21,842 nucleotides of DNA from a virus (taxonomy: Duplodnaviria > Heunggongvirae > Uroviricota > Caudoviricetes), in IMG/VR virus record IMGVR_UViG_2531839433_000003; one strand, written 5' to 3'. Below the pieces are notes generated by a model. The model worked only from the letters and a program-made list of their open reading frames with translations. It was not told where the DNA came from and did not search any database. Each line of letters starts with the position of its first letter. The first letter of the stretch is position 1. Positions 1,059 through 19,222 of the stretch are shown piece after piece. The position numbers were made by a program, and so were the translations under genes.

Positions 1059-1078
1059 AGCCCTCATATCAGAGGGCT
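1059..1078 (-). terminator. Stem-loop between the HEPN gene and int; possible attenuator or weak terminator
   Basis: 7-bp perfect inverted repeat agccctc / gagggct with a 6-nt loop. On the minus strand it is followed by a partly T-rich tract and overlaps the int ribosome-binding site. Confidence 0.3.
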
Positions 1079-1141
1079 AAATTTAACTGTGCTTATATAC
1101 AGTGGTCAATGTATGATTTCATTAAAACAGACAAGGGTGTG

Positions 1142-1777
1142 CTATAAATCTGCTCTTAAATTATTTTCAGGGTCATTAGCGATATTTCTTTGTGAATTAT
1201 TAACTAAATCAGAAAATGTATTATCTCGGTCGTTAGATTTAGTTAATCCAATATTCGTATTTGTCGCTTCTAATTCAAGTATTGATGACTCCATCTTCTG
1301 AATAATGGCTACACTATCTATAAAATAGTCGAAAATATATTGAAATGATACTGTGGGGCTTTTCCCATGAGCGAAATCATTTCTGGCTCTATTTAAAGAT
1401 TTCAACGAATCACGTAATTTATTTGAATGCGGATCGTTCTTGATTTTGTCCTTAAAGTTGTTACACCAGTTATTATCAAATGAACCAAGTGCCTTACAAA
1501 TATTATCGTAATTAGGGTTCATTGAACTATTTCTGAATTTTTCATCAATGAATCTTTGTATTTGTTCACTATGTTGATCATATTTATGATCGCTAATGAT
1601 TGTTTTGAAAGAATATTCAATGGTTCCGCAGGTTCTAATAATTGAATATCGTGTTAAATATTTAACAATAGTTGTAGTGGGGCCAGAAGATTCTATCATC
1701 TTCTCTATACTCTCAAGTTCCTTTAAACAATCTATAATGCTATTTTTAGCATTATTATTAACGATATTGAATGCCAT
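1142..1777 (-). CDS. HEPN-motif protein (R-x4-6-H), predicted RNase effector; resembles the MAE_28990/MAE_18760-type HEPN family
   Basis: Motif LNRARNDFAHGKS (RNxxxHG) in the C-terminal third of an AT-rich ORF. GGAG lies 7 nt upstream of the ATG at 1777; the ORF track's longer start at 1810 has no ribosome-binding site. Overlaps the DUF262 gene by 20 nt. Confidence 0.55.
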   Translation of the reverse strand: MAFNIVNNNAKNSIIDCLKELESIEKMIESSGPTTTIVKYLTRYSIIRTCGTIEYSFKTIISDHKYDQHSEQIQRFIDEKFRNSSMNPNYDNICKALGSFDNNWCNNFKDKIKNDPHSNKLRDSLKSLNRARNDFAHGKSPTVSFQYIFDYFIDSVAIIQKMESSILELEATNTNIGLTKSNDRDNTFSDLVNNSQRNIANDPENNLRADL

Positions 1778-2912
1778 AAAGAAACTCCAGTGCCATTGAA
1801 ATTCTTCCATGTATATTTTCTATCTGCATTGTACCAGATGTGATATGTGACCGAAATGTCTGATTTTGTAGTAACTCATTTCTTTTATGCTCTAGATCGT
1901 TAGTGTTTATATCTTCACCTGAATTTAATGCAATGGATGTTGCGACATATAATGCATCAAAAATGGTTGGATAAAAACGACGACGTATACGTGATGGATC
2001 TGATTGGATTATATTAAAGAATGCATCTGGTCCTATATTATCATGAATAAAATTAATGGTGTTTTCAAAATCGGTTTTAATGGTGTCGATCATGTCAGAG
2101 GTGTTATTTGCTTTATCACCCATATATTCATTAAGGAGTTTTTTTAGCGAAATATTTGCTGGTTCATGACTCTTTATTTTCTGCGTGTTAAGAGCCAAGC
2201 CTCTTAGAATGAATTCCATATCTCTCATTCGTGCATCTGGTTTATTAGAACCGAATAAAGTACGCCATTTGATATTATTGTTTAGTTCTATCAATAGAGT
2301 ATTTAATTTCCCTTGATATACGCAATTACGTATTTCTTGAGCCATTAGTGAACGTCCACCAGTATTTATACGCTCAAAAATTTGATATAGGCTAGTATCA
2401 TCGTTCGACGGAACGGTTTGCTCAAAGATTATAGCGTGTATAGTTGTTGAGCGAATTTTCTTTTTTTCTGAAACTGTAAGTTCATTAAAGGCCTTACCAC
2501 GCCATTTTGCATTAATTTTTCTACTATCGGAAAGTTTAAAGACTCTACTATCTTTTGACCATATACCTGTCACATAATCATAGACAGTCATGATTCTCTG
2601 AAAACCATCTATAATGAGTTTGTTTTCGTCAGACGTATTTGCTAAAAAAATACTCGGAACAGGAAGACCTAGCAATAATGAGTCTATAAATCTACTGGCT
2701 TCGACTTTATCCCAAACATAATTTCTTTGAAGTTCTGGTTTCTGAAGTTCGCCCTCATCATACATTGTAATAAGTTCTCTAAAAGATAAATCGGCCCCCC
2801 ATGAGTTTATATTGTATAAATCATCATTTGAGTAAGAATCGTTCTGTTCTTCTTCGATTATCTCTATTGTGTCCTCAAGAGAATTATTATTGATATAATT
2901 GCTGTCAGTCAT
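1758..2912 (-). CDS. DUF262 protein (ParB-like / GmrS N-terminal NTP-binding domain), no fused HNH/DUF1524 domain
   Basis: Motifs PELQRNYVW and IIDGFQR (the DGQQR-type motif) near the N-terminus. Start chosen at MTDSNY (ATG 2910..2912), which has GAGG 5 nt upstream and sits 1 nt after the CI-like stop codon. Confidence 0.72.
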   Translation of the reverse strand: MTDSNYINNNSLEDTIEIIEEEQNDSYSNDDLYNINSWGADLSFRELITMYDEGELQKPELQRNYVWDKVEASRFIDSLLLGLPVPSIFLANTSDENKLIIDGFQRIMTVYDYVTGIWSKDSRVFKLSDSRKINAKWRGKAFNELTVSEKKKIRSTTIHAIIFEQTVPSNDDTSLYQIFERINTGGRSLMAQEIRNCVYQGKLNTLLIELNNNIKWRTLFGSNKPDARMRDMEFILRGLALNTQKIKSHEPANISLKKLLNEYMGDKANNTSDMIDTIKTDFENTINFIHDNIGPDAFFNIIQSDPSRIRRRFYPTIFDALYVATSIALNSGEDINTNDLEHKRNELLQNQTFRSHITSGTMQIENIHGRISMALEFLYGIQYR

Positions 2913-2913
2913 T

Positions 2914-3864
2914 TTAACCTCTAACATTATTAATGGATAATACGATCTTTGCAATAAATTCGATTTCGTTTATTGAACATTCAAAAACTATGTTTTTATT
3001 TTTTACTTGAATTTTTTCATTAGGTAATTTAGTGATTGTTCGAATACTGATATCTCCATCAATACCAACGATCCACTCGCCATCTATAATATTATTGAAT
3101 CTTTTTTCACAAATGTAAAAGTTATTTACATTTTCAATCAAACAAGGAAATATCGTATTTTCAGGTAACAGATTTTTATCAAATATCGAGTTCCCGCTCT
3201 CAATTAATTTTGCATTATTTAGAGTAAACTTTGGTATATTTATACAGTTTAAACTGCTATTTTTTTCTATTTTATCTCCTTTCCCAAAGGCTAACCACGT
3301 GATGGATACTCCTGTTTCGATAGCACACTGAATTACCCAATCAGCAGGAAAAGTATCACGCATATATCGTGTGGCTAACGTGCTTTTTGAAATACCAAGG
3401 TGATCAGCTAAGGCTTGACGTGTCTTGTAACCGTAAGCTTCAACAATTCGTTCTATTACTGCTTTTCCTCCATGAGTGAAATTCATGTGGATTTCATTAT
3501 CGAACAGAGTGGGGGAAGAGTGAACTTTGTCGCAAAGTCCATCTTCGGTTTGTTTTTCAGCATGTTGTTCTAGTGAAGAAGATGACATTCTTTCTTTAAC
3601 ACCTGAACCAAATGCTAGCCATTCAATTGATGCGCCTGTCTCCATCGAGCAGATAACAACCCAATCTGCTGGAAATGTATCGCGGGCATATCTGTTAGCC
3701 ATCGTGCTTTGGGAAATACCTAGGTGATTACAGAATGCCTGGCGTGACTTGAAGCCATAAGCCATGAGGATCCGCTCAATTACTTTCTGACCACCGCGAT
3801 TCTGTATGACAGCGGCTTTCATATCGTCATTCATATGGCGAAATGTGAATTTTTGAGTTGACAT
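2914..3864 (-). CDS. CI-like repressor with two tandem Phage_CI_repr-type HTH domains and an AT-rich C-terminal domain
   Basis: Two internally repeated segments (around residues 14-88 and 120-195) share the pattern ERI..AYG.K.RQA...HLGIS.ST.A.RY.RDTFPADWV..C..ETG.S..WLAFG.G, which resembles the phage 186 CI N-terminal domain. Divergent from the Apl-like gene, in the cI position. Confidence 0.65.
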   Translation of the reverse strand: MSTQKFTFRHMNDDMKAAVIQNRGGQKVIERILMAYGFKSRQAFCNHLGISQSTMANRYARDTFPADWVVICSMETGASIEWLAFGSGVKERMSSSSLEQHAEKQTEDGLCDKVHSSPTLFDNEIHMNFTHGGKAVIERIVEAYGYKTRQALADHLGISKSTLATRYMRDTFPADWVIQCAIETGVSITWLAFGKGDKIEKNSSLNCINIPKFTLNNAKLIESGNSIFDKNLLPENTIFPCLIENVNNFYICEKRFNNIIDGEWIVGIDGDISIRTITKLPNEKIQVKNKNIVFECSINEIEFIAKIVLSINNVRG

Positions 3865-9116: not shown

Positions 9117-9132
9117 CTGTAAATATAAACAG
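9117..9132. promoter_or_regulatory. LexA box, CTGT-N8-ACAG (ctgtaaatataaacag)
   Basis: Matches the SOS-box core; lies about 45 nt upstream of the 9175 ORF, inside an AT-rich promoter-like region. Confidence 0.5.
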
Positions 9133-11845: not shown

Positions 11846-13417
11846 TTACTGAGAGCTCAGATCAACTTTCCAGGGCAACAGATCGCGTACCCGGTTTGCC
11901 GGCCAGTCCTGGATATGTTCAATGACGTAGCGCAGCCACTTTTCTGGCTCCACATTGTTCAGACGGCATGTGCCGATCAGCGAGTACAACACCGCCGCAT
12001 GTTCACCACCGCTGTCGGAACCCGCGAACATCCACTTTTTCCGGCCTACGGCCACTCCCCGTAAGGCGTTCTCTGCGATGTTGTTGTCGATTTCCACCCA
12101 GCCATTACTGCAGTACACGTTCAGTGCATCCCACTGTTTCAGCAGGTATGCGAACGCTTTTGCCGTATCTGAGTGACGCGACAGTGTTTTCATCTGTTGC
12201 TGTATCCAGTCATACAGTGACTGCATCAGTGGCGCGGCTCTGGTTTTTCTTGCCGCCAGACGCTGTTCTGCTGAACAGCCCCGGACCTCTGCCTCGATGG
12301 CATACAGTTCACCGATACGCTGCAGGGCTTCCGTGGTGATGTCGGTGGGCGCTCTTGCATGCACATCGTGGATTTTTCTCCGGGCATGAGCCATACACGC
12401 GGCTTCCGTTATTCTGCCGGATTCGTATAACGCCCGGTAACCACCGTAAGCATCGGCCTGAAGCACACCGCTGTAACCGGCCAGGTGATTTTGTGGATGG
12501 ATACCTTTCCGGTCCGGACTGTACGCGAACCAGACCGCCGGGGGCATCTGTGAACCGGCGTTACGGTCATCACGGACGTAGACCCACAGCCGGGCTGTCC
12601 GGGTTTTACCGCTGCCCGGCTCCTGGACCGGGACGGGGATATCATCAGCATGGACTTTACCGGGCATCAGCACATACTGGCGCAGGACGTCATACAGCGG
12701 CTCCAGTAGTTCAGCAACGGCACCTGTCCAGCGCCCCAGTGTGGCACGGCTCAGCTCCACACCCTGACGGCGGTATATCTCTGACTGGCGGTATAACGGC
12801 AGATGGTCTGCATATTTTCCGGTGACGACATGGGCCAGGAGCCCCGCTCCGGCATAACTGCGTGCAATGGGTTTTGAAGGTACTGGTGCCTGCACGATAT
12901 GGTCGCACCGACAACAGGCCAGTTTCGGACGTTGTGTTTCGATAACCTTAAAGGCGCTGCTGATAAGCTCCAGTTGCTCTGACACATCACATCCCAGAGA
13001 ACTGAGTTCACCACCACAGGCAGGACAGCATTCCTCTTCCGGCCGGATAACCCGGGTTTCACGGGGAAGTGAGGCCGGTAACGGTTTACGGGCTGAAGAC
13101 TGGCGCAGGGCGGATGGCAGTACCGGGTCATATTGCTCACCCAGCGTTTCCGCCATTTCTTCCTGAAGTGCGCTGATTCGCTCCTGTGCTTCCTGTATCT
13201 GCCGTTCGGTTTTTGCACGAAGTTTTTCTGAGCTTTTACCGAACTGCATACGTTGCAGTTTCGCAACCAGCGCCTTCAGCCGGTTGATTTCGGAAGCATA
13301 AGCCGCCACCCGCTGTGAGAGCAGGCGGTTGTATTCAGCCATCTGGCGTATGGTGTCCTGTTGCGTCTGCAACAGTGCCCGCAGGCGGGCGTTCTCATGA
13401 GCAAGTGAGGTGTCCAT
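11846..13417 (-). CDS. tnpC: IS66-family transposase (TnpC)
   Basis: 523 aa with an N-terminal coiled-coil/leucine-zipper region and a Cys-rich segment, as in IS66-family TnpC. Confidence 0.85.
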
Positions 13418-13436
13418 ATCCTCACTTTACAACGGG

Positions 13437-13784
13437 TTATATGCGGATTCCAGCGCGTTCCGTTCGTTTCGGGTGCTTCCAGTTGATACCTTCAAGAAGC
13501 ATGGATAACTGAGCCGGAGTAAGGTGCACCTTGCCGTCACGGGTGACTGGCCAGACGAAGCGGCCCCGCTCCAGGCGTTTGGTGAAGAGGCACAGTCCGT
13601 CACTGTCAGCCCACAACACTTTTATCTGGTCACCCCGGCGTCCGCGGAAGATGAACAGGTGTCCGGAGAACGGGTCATCCTTCAGGACGTTCTGAACTTT
13701 TGATGCCAGGCCGTTAAAGCCATTTCGCATATCGGTGATACCTGCAACCAGCCAGATACGCGAACCTGCAGGGAGAGATATCAT
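13437..13784 (-). CDS. tnpB: IS66-family accessory protein TnpB (Orf2)
   Basis: 115 aa, MISLPAGSRIWLVAGITDMR..., as in IS66 Orf2; ATGA overlap with the upstream ORF. Confidence 0.8.
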   Translation of the reverse strand: MISLPAGSRIWLVAGITDMRNGFNGLASKVQNVLKDDPFSGHLFIFRGRRGDQIKVLWADSDGLCLFTKRLERGRFVWPVTRDGKVHLTPAQLSMLLEGINWKHPKRTERAGIRI

Positions 13785-14461
13785 CAGTGGCTGCTCCCTT
13801 TTATTTCGCGGATAAGTGTCTGTAATAACGCCGGCGTCAGTTTACCTTTAAGCCTGAGAGTTCCGGCCGGCAGAACCAGCTCACAACACAGACTGTCGGA
13901 CGGTGTATTTATCTGCTCTGGTTCCTGTGCGGGGGCCGGGATTTTATTATCCGGCTCCGGCGTTAACGTCACGGGAAGCAGTGCCGGCATATTTTTTCCG
14001 GAAGGCAGCAGGCCACCTTTCCGGTATTGATGGCGCCAGTTGAAGAGCAGGTTATCGTTGATTCCGTTTTCCCGGGCGATCTGCGCCACACAGGCTCCGG
14101 GCTGCAGTGACTGCTCCACTAAGGCGATTTTAAACTCATAAGGGAAGTTGGGCCGCCGGGGACGTTTTTTTACCACGGGGGCTTCGGATATAACGGTGCT
14201 TTCAGGACGTACGACTGGTACCGTGGAAAATTGTCCGTAAAGGCAGGCATCAAGTTCCTGCTCCGACATGCCTGCGGGCAAAGGCCACGAAAGGCCAGCT
14301 CTCCGAAAGCGCACGAACATACTACAAACTGTTGATTTTGGTACACCCAGGCGACGCCCGGCCACAACCCGGGGTAAATGTTCTTCAAAGTGAAGACGTA
14401 AAGCTTCAGTGATCCAGGTCCGGTGTTTCATACGATAGTGTCCATTAAAAATGATGGACAT
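13784..14461 (-). CDS. tnpA: IS66-family accessory protein TnpA (Orf1); start uncertain
   Basis: First ORF inside the IS, leftward, coupled to tnpB. The true start may be the internal Met (MKHRTW...). Confidence 0.6.
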   Translation of the reverse strand: MSIIFNGHYRMKHRTWITEALRLHFEEHLPRVVAGRRLGVPKSTVCSMFVRFRRAGLSWPLPAGMSEQELDACLYGQFSTVPVVRPESTVISEAPVVKKRPRRPNFPYEFKIALVEQSLQPGACVAQIARENGINDNLLFNWRHQYRKGGLLPSGKNMPALLPVTLTPEPDNKIPAPAQEPEQINTPSDSLCCELVLPAGTLRLKGKLTPALLQTLIREIKGSSH

Positions 14462-14514
14462 TATTTTTGTAGAGCCGGAGGAAACAGACCAGACGGTTTA
14501 AATGAGCCGGTTAC

Positions 14515-14522
14515 GACTGGCC
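14515..14522. repeat. Target-site duplication gactggcc, right copy
   Basis: Identical to 11808..11815. Confidence 0.8.
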
Positions 14523-15439
14523 TTTTCCACATCCCCAAAACCGCCGGTATTGTTGGGAATGATACCCATCATTTGCGGCGGCACACGATGCGCCGCCATC
14601 ATGTCGTCCCGGCTCACGTTCTTGATATTCAGGAACTCATCCTTCGCCGCCACTTCTGACAACGGGATAATCTGAAGCCCATCCTTTTTGCCGTTAGGCG
14701 AGTACATAAACAGGTTACGGAAGTTACCAGGACCTTTGGCACTTTTCATTGCGTTGCGGAGGTTGTTCACATCCTCCTGGTTCTGCGCGGCGTCGGTCAT
14801 GTACATGATGAAGCCCGCATGGCTGCCGTTGATGTAATACTTCCGGCGGAACAGCGTGGCGGACTCGTTGAGCAGGGCTGACGGAATGGCAGAAAGATAA
14901 CCGGGCAGGCCGTAGATCTCCTGGTTGATGTCCGGCTCCATCAGATGAAAAATGCTGCCTTTCGTGAACTGATACGGCTGGGTTGTCATACCGTATTGCA
15001 CAAACCAGTAGGTATCCAGGTCTAACCCGCGTCGGGTGTATTTTGCCAGAGCAGGCTCAAGGGCTATAACTTCACCGAAGCGGTTCGTGCGTTTCTCCAG
15101 GTAGGCGTTACCAAAAACCAGATAGTCCTGTACAAAACGCGAAAAAGCCTGCTGGCTGAGCAGCGGGTGAGGGATGTAGGTGCTGGTCAGAATGTTGCAC
15201 TTTACTGCAATCGGGGAACTATGATGAACGGCAGCGCGGAAGGTGCGCGCCAGTCCGTCAAAGCTGACGGGCGGCTCATACCAGCGGTCCATCTGTACGC
15301 ATTCCACATAATCCAGCAGCTCTCGGCGGTCCAGAACAGGAACGGGATCGCCGAAGCTGAATGCTTCGGCTGTAGTTTGACTTTTAAGCTGGATCTGTTT
15401 CGTCGCCGCAGCGCGGTTCTTCTTACTCTTTCCCATCAA
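14515..15439 (-). pseudogene. Portal gene (P2 gpQ type) 5' portion, interrupted near its 3' end by the IS
   Basis: ORF 14498..15439 translates to a P2 Q-like portal; its last few codons read into IS sequence. Start overlaps the terminase stop (ATGA). Confidence 0.75.
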
Positions 15440-18194: not shown

Positions 18195-18572
18195 ATGAAG
18201 AAGAATACCCGCTTTGCTTTTAACGCTTACCTGCAGCAGCTGGCGCGTCTGAACGGTGTGGCAGTTGAAGAACTGTCCAGCAAGTTCACCGTGGAGCCGT
18301 CTGTGCAGCAGACGCTGGAAGACCAGATCCAGCAGTCCGCCGCTTTCCTGACGCTGATTAACGTCACGCCAGTGACTGAGCAGTCCGGTCAGCTGCTGGG
18401 GCTGGGAGTTGGCAGCACCATTGCCGGAACCACTGACACCACCGCGAAAGAGCGTGAACCTGTCGATCCGACGCTGATGGTCGATGTGGAATATAAATGC
18501 GAGCAGACCAACTTTGACACGGTGCTGACCTACGCGAAGCTGGACCTGTGGACGGGGTGGGCTCTTAGATGA
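18195..18572 (+). pseudogene. Major capsid protein (P2 gpN type), N-terminal about 125 aa only
   Basis: Begins MKKNTRFAFNAYLQQLARLNG...KFTVEPSVQQTL like P2 gpN, but terminates after 125 aa where about 357 are expected. Confidence 0.7.
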
Positions 18573-18573
18573 T

Positions 18574-18678
18574 GCGGAATGGACCATTACGACTCTGACG
18601 CATACCGTCAGCCCCGATAACGGTTTTACAACCAGTCTGGAGCTTGAAGTGAGGATTGATGATTTCGAAATGGAATGA
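18574..18678 (+). pseudogene. Possible C-terminal remnant of tail gene D fused out of frame to the capsid fragment
   Basis: The +1 frame reads ...TITTLTHTVSPDNGFTTSLELEVRIDDFEME then stop, about 90 nt upstream of ogr, where D lies in P2. Assignment is by position and frame only. Confidence 0.3.
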
Positions 18679-18768
18679 TTCTTCGCAATGGAGAACTTTT
18701 AAGTTTGCAAAATGGAATAATGCGGTATCATTATTGTGAATTTAGCAAAAATGGGGAGAACTCGAAAA

Positions 18769-18987
18769 ATGATGATTTGCCCACTGTGTGGAAGTGCCGC
18801 CCATACTCGCAGCAGTTTTCAGGTATCTTCATTGACCAAAGAACGTTACAACCAGTGCCAGAACATTAACTGCAGCCATACTTTTGTTACCCATGAAACT
18901 TTTGTTCGTTCGATTGCAACGCCAAAAGAGTCAAATCCGGTTCAGCCGCATCCAATGAAATCAGGACAGGTGGCGCTCTCTCTTTGA
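18769..18987 (+). CDS. ogr: Ogr-type zinc-finger late transcription activator
   Basis: 72 aa, MMICPLCGSAAHTRSS...KERYNQCQNINCSHTF, parallel to P2 Ogr (CPLC...KERYHQCQNVNCSATF); last prophage gene before attR. Confidence 0.85.
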   Translation: MMICPLCGSAAHTRSSFQVSSLTKERYNQCQNINCSHTFVTHETFVRSIATPKESNPVQPHPMKSGQVALSL

Positions 18988-19009
18988 CGCTGCCGCCATT
19001 TTGTCGCCA
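18988..19009. repeat. attR core: 22-bp direct repeat cgctgccgccattttgtcgcca
   Basis: See attL; begins at the base after the ogr stop codon. Confidence 0.7.
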
Positions 19010-19074
19010 TCGTTAAAAAACAGTGTTTCTAACATCATGATTTTAAACAGCTTAAATTTCAGGCAACAAAAAAC

Positions 19075-19111
19075 CCATCAACCTTGAACCGAAATGGCGG
19101 GGTTGATGGGC
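19075..19111 (-). terminator. Probable ybjL rho-independent terminator
   Basis: 10-bp stem cccatcaacc / ggttgatggg; on the minus strand it is followed by six T. Confidence 0.45.
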
Positions 19112-19222
19112 TCCACAAAATGGGGACATCAAAGAAAAGCAGTGGCACTAATTAAGACTGATGCCCTGCGGAAAAGTTCTGCGGTTGTGCAAAAAAATTT
19201 CATTTTCAGGGCAACTTCAGTT

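Follow-up and report, generated by a model that had tools for sequence, protein, structure and literature searches.

A DUF262/HEPN gene pair behind the cI gene of a defective 186-like prophage, probably an anti-phage system of the PD-T4-2 type

The stretch of viral DNA analysed here (IMG/VR record IMGVR_UViG_2531839433_000003, Caudoviricetes; 21,842 nucleotides, hereafter the window) carries on its minus strand, directly behind the gene of the prophage repressor CI, two adjacent genes for a DUF262 protein of 384 amino acids (1758-2912) and a HEPN protein of 211 amino acids (1142-1777). Judging from homology and context, a role of this pair in defence is very likely, and we consider it probable that the pair is a two-gene anti-phage system of the PD-T4-2 type, borne as cargo by a defective 186-like prophage between its cI and int genes. 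An earlier note on the same DNA, made from the letters alone, had proposed a defence module here and held that no named, validated system could be matched to it. Such a system does exist. Namely, PD-T4-2 has the same architecture, and PD-T4-2_B is the only PADLOC family that the HEPN protein matches. Since the type was already found, and shown to block phage T4, in 2022, the pair is a new example and not a new kind, and the findings reported here leave current concepts unchanged.

The two proteins and their relation to known systems

The comparison with PD-T4-2 was made through the PADLOC profile models and the published description, and both proteins match the models, the HEPN protein weakly. 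In particular, the DUF262 protein matches PD-T4-2_A with E=1.8e-55 (residues 22-377, model positions 18-360 of 363), and positions 9-145 of the 168 in the PD-T4-2_B model are matched by the HEPN protein with E=1.4e-8 (33 bits). In the wider HEPN family, 38 of 95 representatives match PD-T4-2_B at 1e-5 or better (the best at 3e-10) and match no other defence family. Vassallo et al. (2022, Nat Microbiol, PMC9519451) list PD-T4-2 as "DUF262, HEPN" and describe a two-gene operon of 1540 bp from E. coli ECOR65 (QOYX01000002, 338334-339873), obtained by functional selection, with gene A assigned by HHpred to PF03235 and gene B to PF18735/PF18737. According to that paper, it confers protection from T4 on MG1655, and T4 plaques again on ECOR65 once the operon is deleted. 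As in PD-T4-2, the genes studied here are adjacent and lie on the same strand, the upstream one (A) encoding a DUF262/GmrSD_N protein without DUF1524 and the downstream one (B) a small HEPN protein of the RiboL-PSP/MAE_28990 type, with the Rx4H motif near residue 120-137. The sizes are also alike, with 363 and 168 positions in the PADLOC models of PD-T4-2 and 384 amino acids and a core of 168 amino acids here. Reviews group PD-T4-2 with Menshen and Dazbog, as DUF262 systems without DUF1524 whose mechanism is unknown, and no mechanistic study of PD-T4-2 was found in the literature searched.

The DUF262 protein, a ParB-like NTPase and the putative sensor of the pair, consists of an N-terminal DUF262 domain and a helical C-terminal domain. 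Its sole Pfam domain is GmrSD_N (PF03235, E=2.5e-26, 93.5 bits with a cutoff of 33.2), so that the family assignment made in the earlier note lies above the gathering threshold. The two motifs named there were both found and are conserved in homologues: QRNYVW (amino acids 62-67, window 2712-2729, minus strand), with Q62, R63 and W67, and DGFQR (amino acids 102-106, window 2595-2609, minus strand), with D102, G103, Q105 and R106, these residues being invariant in 30-35 homologues. DGxQR is the NTP-binding and hydrolysis motif of ParB/DUF262 domains (PMC10952713, PMC12065111). What is more, Pfam finds neither a DUF1524 (PF07510) nor an HNH nuclease domain in the protein, just as had been claimed. 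The AlphaFold model is usable only for the C-terminal domain; across much of residues 1-200 its pLDDT falls below 50, probably owing to an overly uniform alignment. Searches of the Protein Data Bank (PDB) by sequence and profile returned a single match, BrxU at 4.8e-5, and thus no close solved relative; NCBIfam gave no match for CI, the DUF262 protein or the HEPN protein.

The HEPN protein, of the RiboL-PSP type and the putative RNase effector, has a HEPN core of approximately 168 amino acids followed by a disordered tail of approximately 40. It matches HEPN_RiboL-PSP (PF18735) with E=2.2e-19 and 70.6 bits (cutoff 28.4), which confirms it as a HEPN protein, while the family that the earlier note had named, MAE_28990, is matched only marginally (E=0.063). 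PHROGs holds no match for it. The RNxxxHG signature that the note had read in this separate protein is present as RNDFAHG (amino acids 132-138, window 1364-1384, minus strand), with the predicted catalytic Rx4H intact. Across the 95 family representatives R132 is invariant, and H137 and G138 are each conserved in at least 90%; in close homologues R132, N133, H137 and G138 are all invariant. The residue numbers given previously (R141, R143, H148) need correction, as they belong to a longer alternative reading frame of 222 amino acids that begins at an ATG at 1810, and correspond to R130, R132 and H137 of the 211-residue protein. We favour the latter, starting at 1777, because nearly all homologues begin with M-x-F-N-I.

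The tail (approximately amino acids 170-211, window 1142-1270) is rich in N, D and T and has low predicted order. Tails of prophage-borne homologues vary in length and composition, reach approximately 70 amino acids and are often acidic or rich in Ala and Glu; chromosomal homologues of 162-172 amino acids have none. As for its breadth, the HEPN family comprises 132 clusters at 90% in one database and 1132 representatives of 50% clusters (E<=1e-3) in another, with an identity of approximately 50% from Enterobacterales to Betaproteobacteria, Bacteroidota and Micavibrio. Over the same range, the mean identity of the DUF262 proteins is 65-70%, with long invariant blocks, which is far above that of their HEPN partners and unusually high for a component of a defence system.

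Of the other systems built on a DUF262 protein, Menshen (NsnABC) comes closest on the sensor side. The DUF262 protein matches NsnA over its full length (residues 15-379, 1.2e-65), implying the same two-domain sensor of a ParB-DUF262 and a helical "ParBDB" domain, and the effectors of Menshen (Millman 2022; analysed in PMC12065111) are also predicted RNases. However, the partner here is a HEPN protein, and there is no gene for NsnB (ABC-ATPase/DUF3696) or NsnC (inPIN-effector): the only genes alongside are cI, the HEPN gene and int, without any match to NsnB or NsnC, and membership in Menshen was rejected. With GmrSD, BrxU and SspE the protein shares the N-terminal DUF262 domain with its QR...W and DGxQR motifs, and BrxU is its top match by structure as well as by PDB profile. 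Yet the PADLOC models of GmrSD-like systems, HEC-05/06 and SspE match the N-terminal DUF262 part only, and where those enzymes have a fused DUF1524 His-Me nuclease, the presumed effector here is a separate RNase, so that RNA, and not phage DNA, is the probable target. Given the lack of a PF07510 or HNH match and the helical C-terminal end, the pair was not assigned to these type IV enzymes. Two further candidates were also set aside: HEPN-MNT (HepT/MntA), since the HEPN gene has the DUF262 gene and int as its neighbours and no nucleotidyltransferase gene, and Dazbog, since neither protein has a DzbA or DzbB model among its PADLOC matches.

Gene arrangement, genomic contexts and the cI-int slot

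The genes are arranged head to tail on the minus strand, in the order cI (2914-3864), DUF262 gene (1758-2912), HEPN gene (1142-1777) and int (1-1053), with divergent apl/cox-like and cII genes beyond cI. The earlier note had described the first three as one tight leftward unit, and the sequence reproduces its description in detail. Namely, the cI stop codon TAA (2916-2914) is followed by a single base (2913) and then by the ATG of the DUF262 gene (2912-2910), whose GAGG Shine-Dalgarno (SD) sequence (2918-2921, minus strand) lies within the last cI codons (R-G-stop). The DUF262 stop codon (1760-1758) and the HEPN ATG (1777-1775) in turn produce an overlap of 20 nucleotides (ATGGCATTCAATATCGTTAA, 1758-1777, minus strand), and a GGAG (1788-1785) sits 7 nucleotides 5' of this ATG. 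A search of the coding strand from cI to the HEPN stop found no terminator-like site, and a promoter scan gave 12 matches, fewer than the 14.9 in shuffled sequence. The position resembles that of lambda rexAB, where exclusion genes directly 3' of the repressor gene are expressed in the lysogen, although the DUF262 and HEPN proteins have no homology to RexA or RexB. With 2788 homologues of the DUF262 protein (E<1e-10) and the 1132 HEPN cluster representatives mentioned above, both reading frames are, on this comparative evidence, real genes and not chance open reading frames. Their GC content of 29-35%, compared with 45-55% in the prophage backbone, fits cargo gained by horizontal transfer.

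For the survey of gene neighbourhoods, loci L002-L013, L015-L017 and L021-L023 were fetched, and in every one of them the gene immediately 5' of the HEPN gene is a DUF262 gene, in agreement with the expectation that homologues would be found together. The overlap of 20 nucleotides recurs in L002, L005, L008, L010, L011 and L021, and measures 23 nucleotides in L023 and 11 in L022. The order cI-DUF262-HEPN-int is found in 186-like prophages on E. coli-like metagenome contigs, in Yersinia enterocolitica, in Serratia proteamaculans and on IMG/VR contigs, where the gap between cI and the DUF262 gene is 8-13 nucleotides, as against the single nucleotide in the window, and contains an SD sequence (GAGG, GGAG or AGGG). 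Stand-alone copies in Methylotenera, Nitrotoga and Ancylomarina lie in islets free of phage genes, and a related pair, of 373 (DUF262) and 191 (HEPN) amino acids, is found on E. coli plasmids of 3.9 kb (L013, e.g. NZ_AP027804.1). The plasmid HEPN protein has a tail rich in Lys and Arg, and the pair adjoins a gene for a VbhA-family antitoxin.

The window itself is the left part of a P2/186-like (Peduoviridae) prophage that adjoins rcdA in E. coli, and matches, among others, enterotoxigenic E. coli (ETEC) strain 504239 (100% identity) and TW11681 (99.9-100%). This prophage is a defective one, its portal gene interrupted by ISCro1, an element of the IS66 family (tnpA, tnpB and transposase). In addition, the genes for head completion, lysis and the tail have been deleted, so that a truncated major capsid gene now runs into a remnant of gene D; these traces of decay were located at 11846-14461, 14498-15439 and approximately 18195-19200 of the window. 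The gene ogr and the host gene ybjL follow, leaving approximately 19 kb between rcdA and ybjL. Despite this decay, 10 E. coli genomes share an intact cassette with at least 99.7% identity, and contig L012 holds a remnant with little more than cox-cI-DUF262-HEPN-int. Such retention of an intact cassette, in the decayed prophage of the ETEC strains as in the L012 remnant, fits a benefit to the host, without being proof of it.

The place of the pair between cI and int is occupied by different genes in related prophages. Prophages that share the attB (rcdA) and the backbone carry three different cargoes: DUF262 and HEPN in the window, a homologue of PD-Lambda-1 in phage vB_EcoM-813R9 (L018, 3083-4759; PADLOC E=3e-120), and a protein of 324 amino acids in E. 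coli EC6563 (L014, 2142-3116; phrog_2628, E=1.4e-70). The last of these has no PADLOC match and no significant Pfam match, and is by its position a candidate new defence gene. The location is not novel: a defence hotspot between cI and int has been described in K139-like, P2-related prophages of Vibrio (Rousset et al. 2022, PMC9122126). The two have the variable cI-int cargo slot in common and differ in host clade (here Enterobacterales, with 186-like prophages) and in cargo. In this sense, the cI-int slot of enterobacterial 186-like prophages is a defence hotspot that extends the report from Vibrio and points to further candidates. A more distant pair was seen in phage P2_4B2 (L020, 140-2015; LR595873), where it lies in P2 hotspot 1, with the replication gene on one side and the end of the genome on the other. 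It consists of a divergent DUF262 protein of 381 amino acids (NsnA, 4.9e-55) and a HEPN protein of 239 amino acids, which matches PF18737 (E=7.6e-18), has the motif ARNDLAHG and is without a PADLOC match. Taken together with the pair in the window, it indicates that the combination of DUF262 and HEPN recurs in two different hotspots of Peduoviridae.

How well does all this agree with a PD-T4-2-type defence system borne by a prophage? Several observations weigh against it. First, the similarity of the HEPN protein to PD-T4-2_B is weak (the 33 bits given above), and the DUF262 protein scores higher on NsnA than on PD-T4-2_A, suggesting a sister clade that may respond to another trigger and act on another target than PD-T4-2 does. 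Second, the expectation of a phage or defence context holds only in part: the pair does recur in 186-like prophages, but its copies outside prophages adjoin housekeeping genes and do not lie in defence islands. Third, a search of deposited phage genomes found no homologue of the HEPN protein of the window. Finally, the AT-rich 3' end of cI may contain an internal promoter. The first point extends to the family as a whole. In close homologues of the DUF262 protein the NsnA score is always above that for PD-T4-2_A, and nucleotide and HEPN protein searches gave no homologue with a strong PD-T4-2_B score among the 95 representatives tested, the weakness of these scores across the family being a sign of a related but separate clade. 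Two further differences are the disordered C-terminal tail, which is extra relative to PD-T4-2, and the position a single nucleotide behind a prophage cI gene, unlike PD-T4-2, which was cloned as an operon standing by itself, along with the region upstream of it. We therefore read the pair, on these profile comparisons, as belonging to a sister clade, divergent in sequence but built like PD-T4-2.

Proposed mode of action and competing explanations

By analogy with the roles of DUF262 domains in GmrSD, BrxU and SspE, with HEPN RNases elsewhere and with the selection of PD-T4-2 on T4, one can sketch how the pair might act. The lysogenic promoter would drive its transcription along with that of cI, its translation would be coupled, and such co-transcription would mean that the lysogen makes it constitutively. 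The DUF262 protein would keep the HEPN protein inactive and sense the DNA of an incoming heterologous phage, perhaps modified DNA, if GmrSD, BrxU and SspE and the T-even specificity of PD-T4-2 are any guide. The binding or hydrolysis of NTP at DGFQR would then switch the complex, and a HEPN dimer would cleave RNA, be it tRNA, mRNA or rRNA, with the result that translation stops and the infection is aborted. A HEPN RNase in another defence system, DARNA/PD-T7-3, cleaves tRNA.

Would the same observations be expected if the pair were not a defence system at all? The best of the competing explanations, which we nevertheless judge unlikely, is a toxin-antitoxin (addiction) module, with HEPN as the toxin and DUF262 as its neutraliser, whose main role would be to stabilise the prophage remnant. 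By structure the HEPN protein comes closest to HepT, the toxin of HEPN-MNT toxin-antitoxin systems (at a sequence identity of only 9-15%), the two genes overlap by 20 nucleotides like many toxin-antitoxin pairs, the module is intact in a decayed prophage as well as in the L012 remnant, and the copies on 3.9-kb plasmids adjoin a VbhA antitoxin gene. On the other hand, the partner is not an MNT nucleotidyltransferase, and an NTPase of 384 amino acids with a DNA-binding-type domain would be an unusually elaborate antitoxin. Moreover, PD-T4-2, which is homologous in architecture, confers phage protection, and its native strain tolerates the deletion. That said, toxin-antitoxin function and defence by abortive infection are not mutually exclusive.

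A restriction mechanism at the level of DNA, which we regard as quite improbable, would have the DUF262 protein act in a type IV-like manner on modified phage DNA together with a host nuclease or one that was not recognised, the HEPN protein serving as a non-catalytic adaptor or regulator. DUF262 domains do sense modified DNA in GmrSD, BrxU and SspE (PMC10952713, PMC12065111), BrxU is the best structural match, and PD-T4-2 was selected on T4; in the study that describes it, systems selected on T4 are reported generally to protect against the other T-even phages T2 and T6 as well (PMC9519451). However, Pfam detects no DUF1524, HNH or other nuclease domain in the DUF262 protein, and the conservation of the HEPN arginine and histidine across 95 diverse representatives argues for catalysis.

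The remaining two explanations are weaker still. That the pair belongs to the prophage's own lysis-lysogeny circuit, processing the cI-int transcript or controlling Int instead of acting in defence, is very unlikely: it would account for the position in the lysogenic operon between cI and int, and the C-terminal domain of the window's CI is indeed closest (50%) to that of the cassette carrier L002, but the same domain is only 29-40% identical in other carriers, unrelated cargo (PD-Lambda-1, the 324-residue protein) takes the same place in sibling prophages that share the backbone, and the pair exists without phage genes in Methylotenera, Nitrotoga and Ancylomarina and on small plasmids. Least probable is an inactive remnant, with genes left intact by chance in a prophage that is admittedly defective and neither expressed nor functional, given that both reading frames are full-length with all their motifs and at least 99.7% identical in 10 genomes, and that cI, the presumed driver of their expression, is intact too.

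Returning to the PD-T4-2-type system as the preferred explanation, one may still ask whether this clade does what PD-T4-2 does. We think it rather unlikely, though conceivable, that it is not functionally equivalent and that it could recognise a different, near-universal cue of infection, with its dose tied to cI. What makes this conceivable is a sensor that is NsnA-like and unusually conserved (65-70% from Enterobacterales to Bacteroidota), together with a HEPN protein only marginally related to PD-T4-2B. If true, translational coupling to cI in 186-like prophages could set the dose of the defence by the level of repressor, so that it would be on in the lysogen and fade upon induction, a built-in way of sparing the prophage's own lytic growth. 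In any case, a divergent and widespread sister clade with a conserved DUF262 partner offers comparative material for studying the sensor-effector interface and the trigger.

The repressor and the region upstream of int

The first gene of the unit (2914-3864, minus strand) encodes a 186-type CI repressor of 316 amino acids, annotated in RefSeq as "phage repressor protein CI" and matching Phage_CI_repr (E=8.5e-59, in two stretches) and Phage_CI_C (E=1e-23). Its helix-turn-helix (HTH) domain is tandemly duplicated (amino acids 23-96 and 131-204, approximately 60% identical) and followed by the CI C-terminal domain. Relatives with the same cassette have a single-HTH CI of 188-204 amino acids, and for the N-terminal part with its double HTH there are matches in approximately 230 E. 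coli genomes, at approximately 85% DNA identity. We also considered that the C-terminal domain might travel with the cassette, but with one carrier at 50% identity and the others at 29-40% this was a weak result.

On the other side of the pair, the region upstream of int (1059-1112, minus strand) is the downstream boundary of the cargo slot. It is kept in the E. coli, Yersinia and IMG/VR relatives whatever the cargo, and belongs to int and not to the cassette. Within it, CATTGACCACTGTATATAAGCACAGTTAAATT (1080-1112, minus strand) comprises a -35 element TTGACC, a CTGT-N8-ACAG (1087-1102) in the spacer, which is by sequence a perfect LexA-box consensus, and a -10 element TAAATT. A hairpin (1059-1078) follows, with the SD sequence of int in its 3' arm. 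The element may be an SOS-controlled int promoter. CTGT-N8-ACAG occurs three times in the window, where 0.26 occurrences would be expected. A second LexA-box consensus, CTGTAAATATAAACAG (9117-9132), lies 3' of the replication gene and 5' of a small hypothetical and a DinI-like gene, which we take to be the position expected for the SOS-controlled, tum-type antirepressor operon of 186-like phages.

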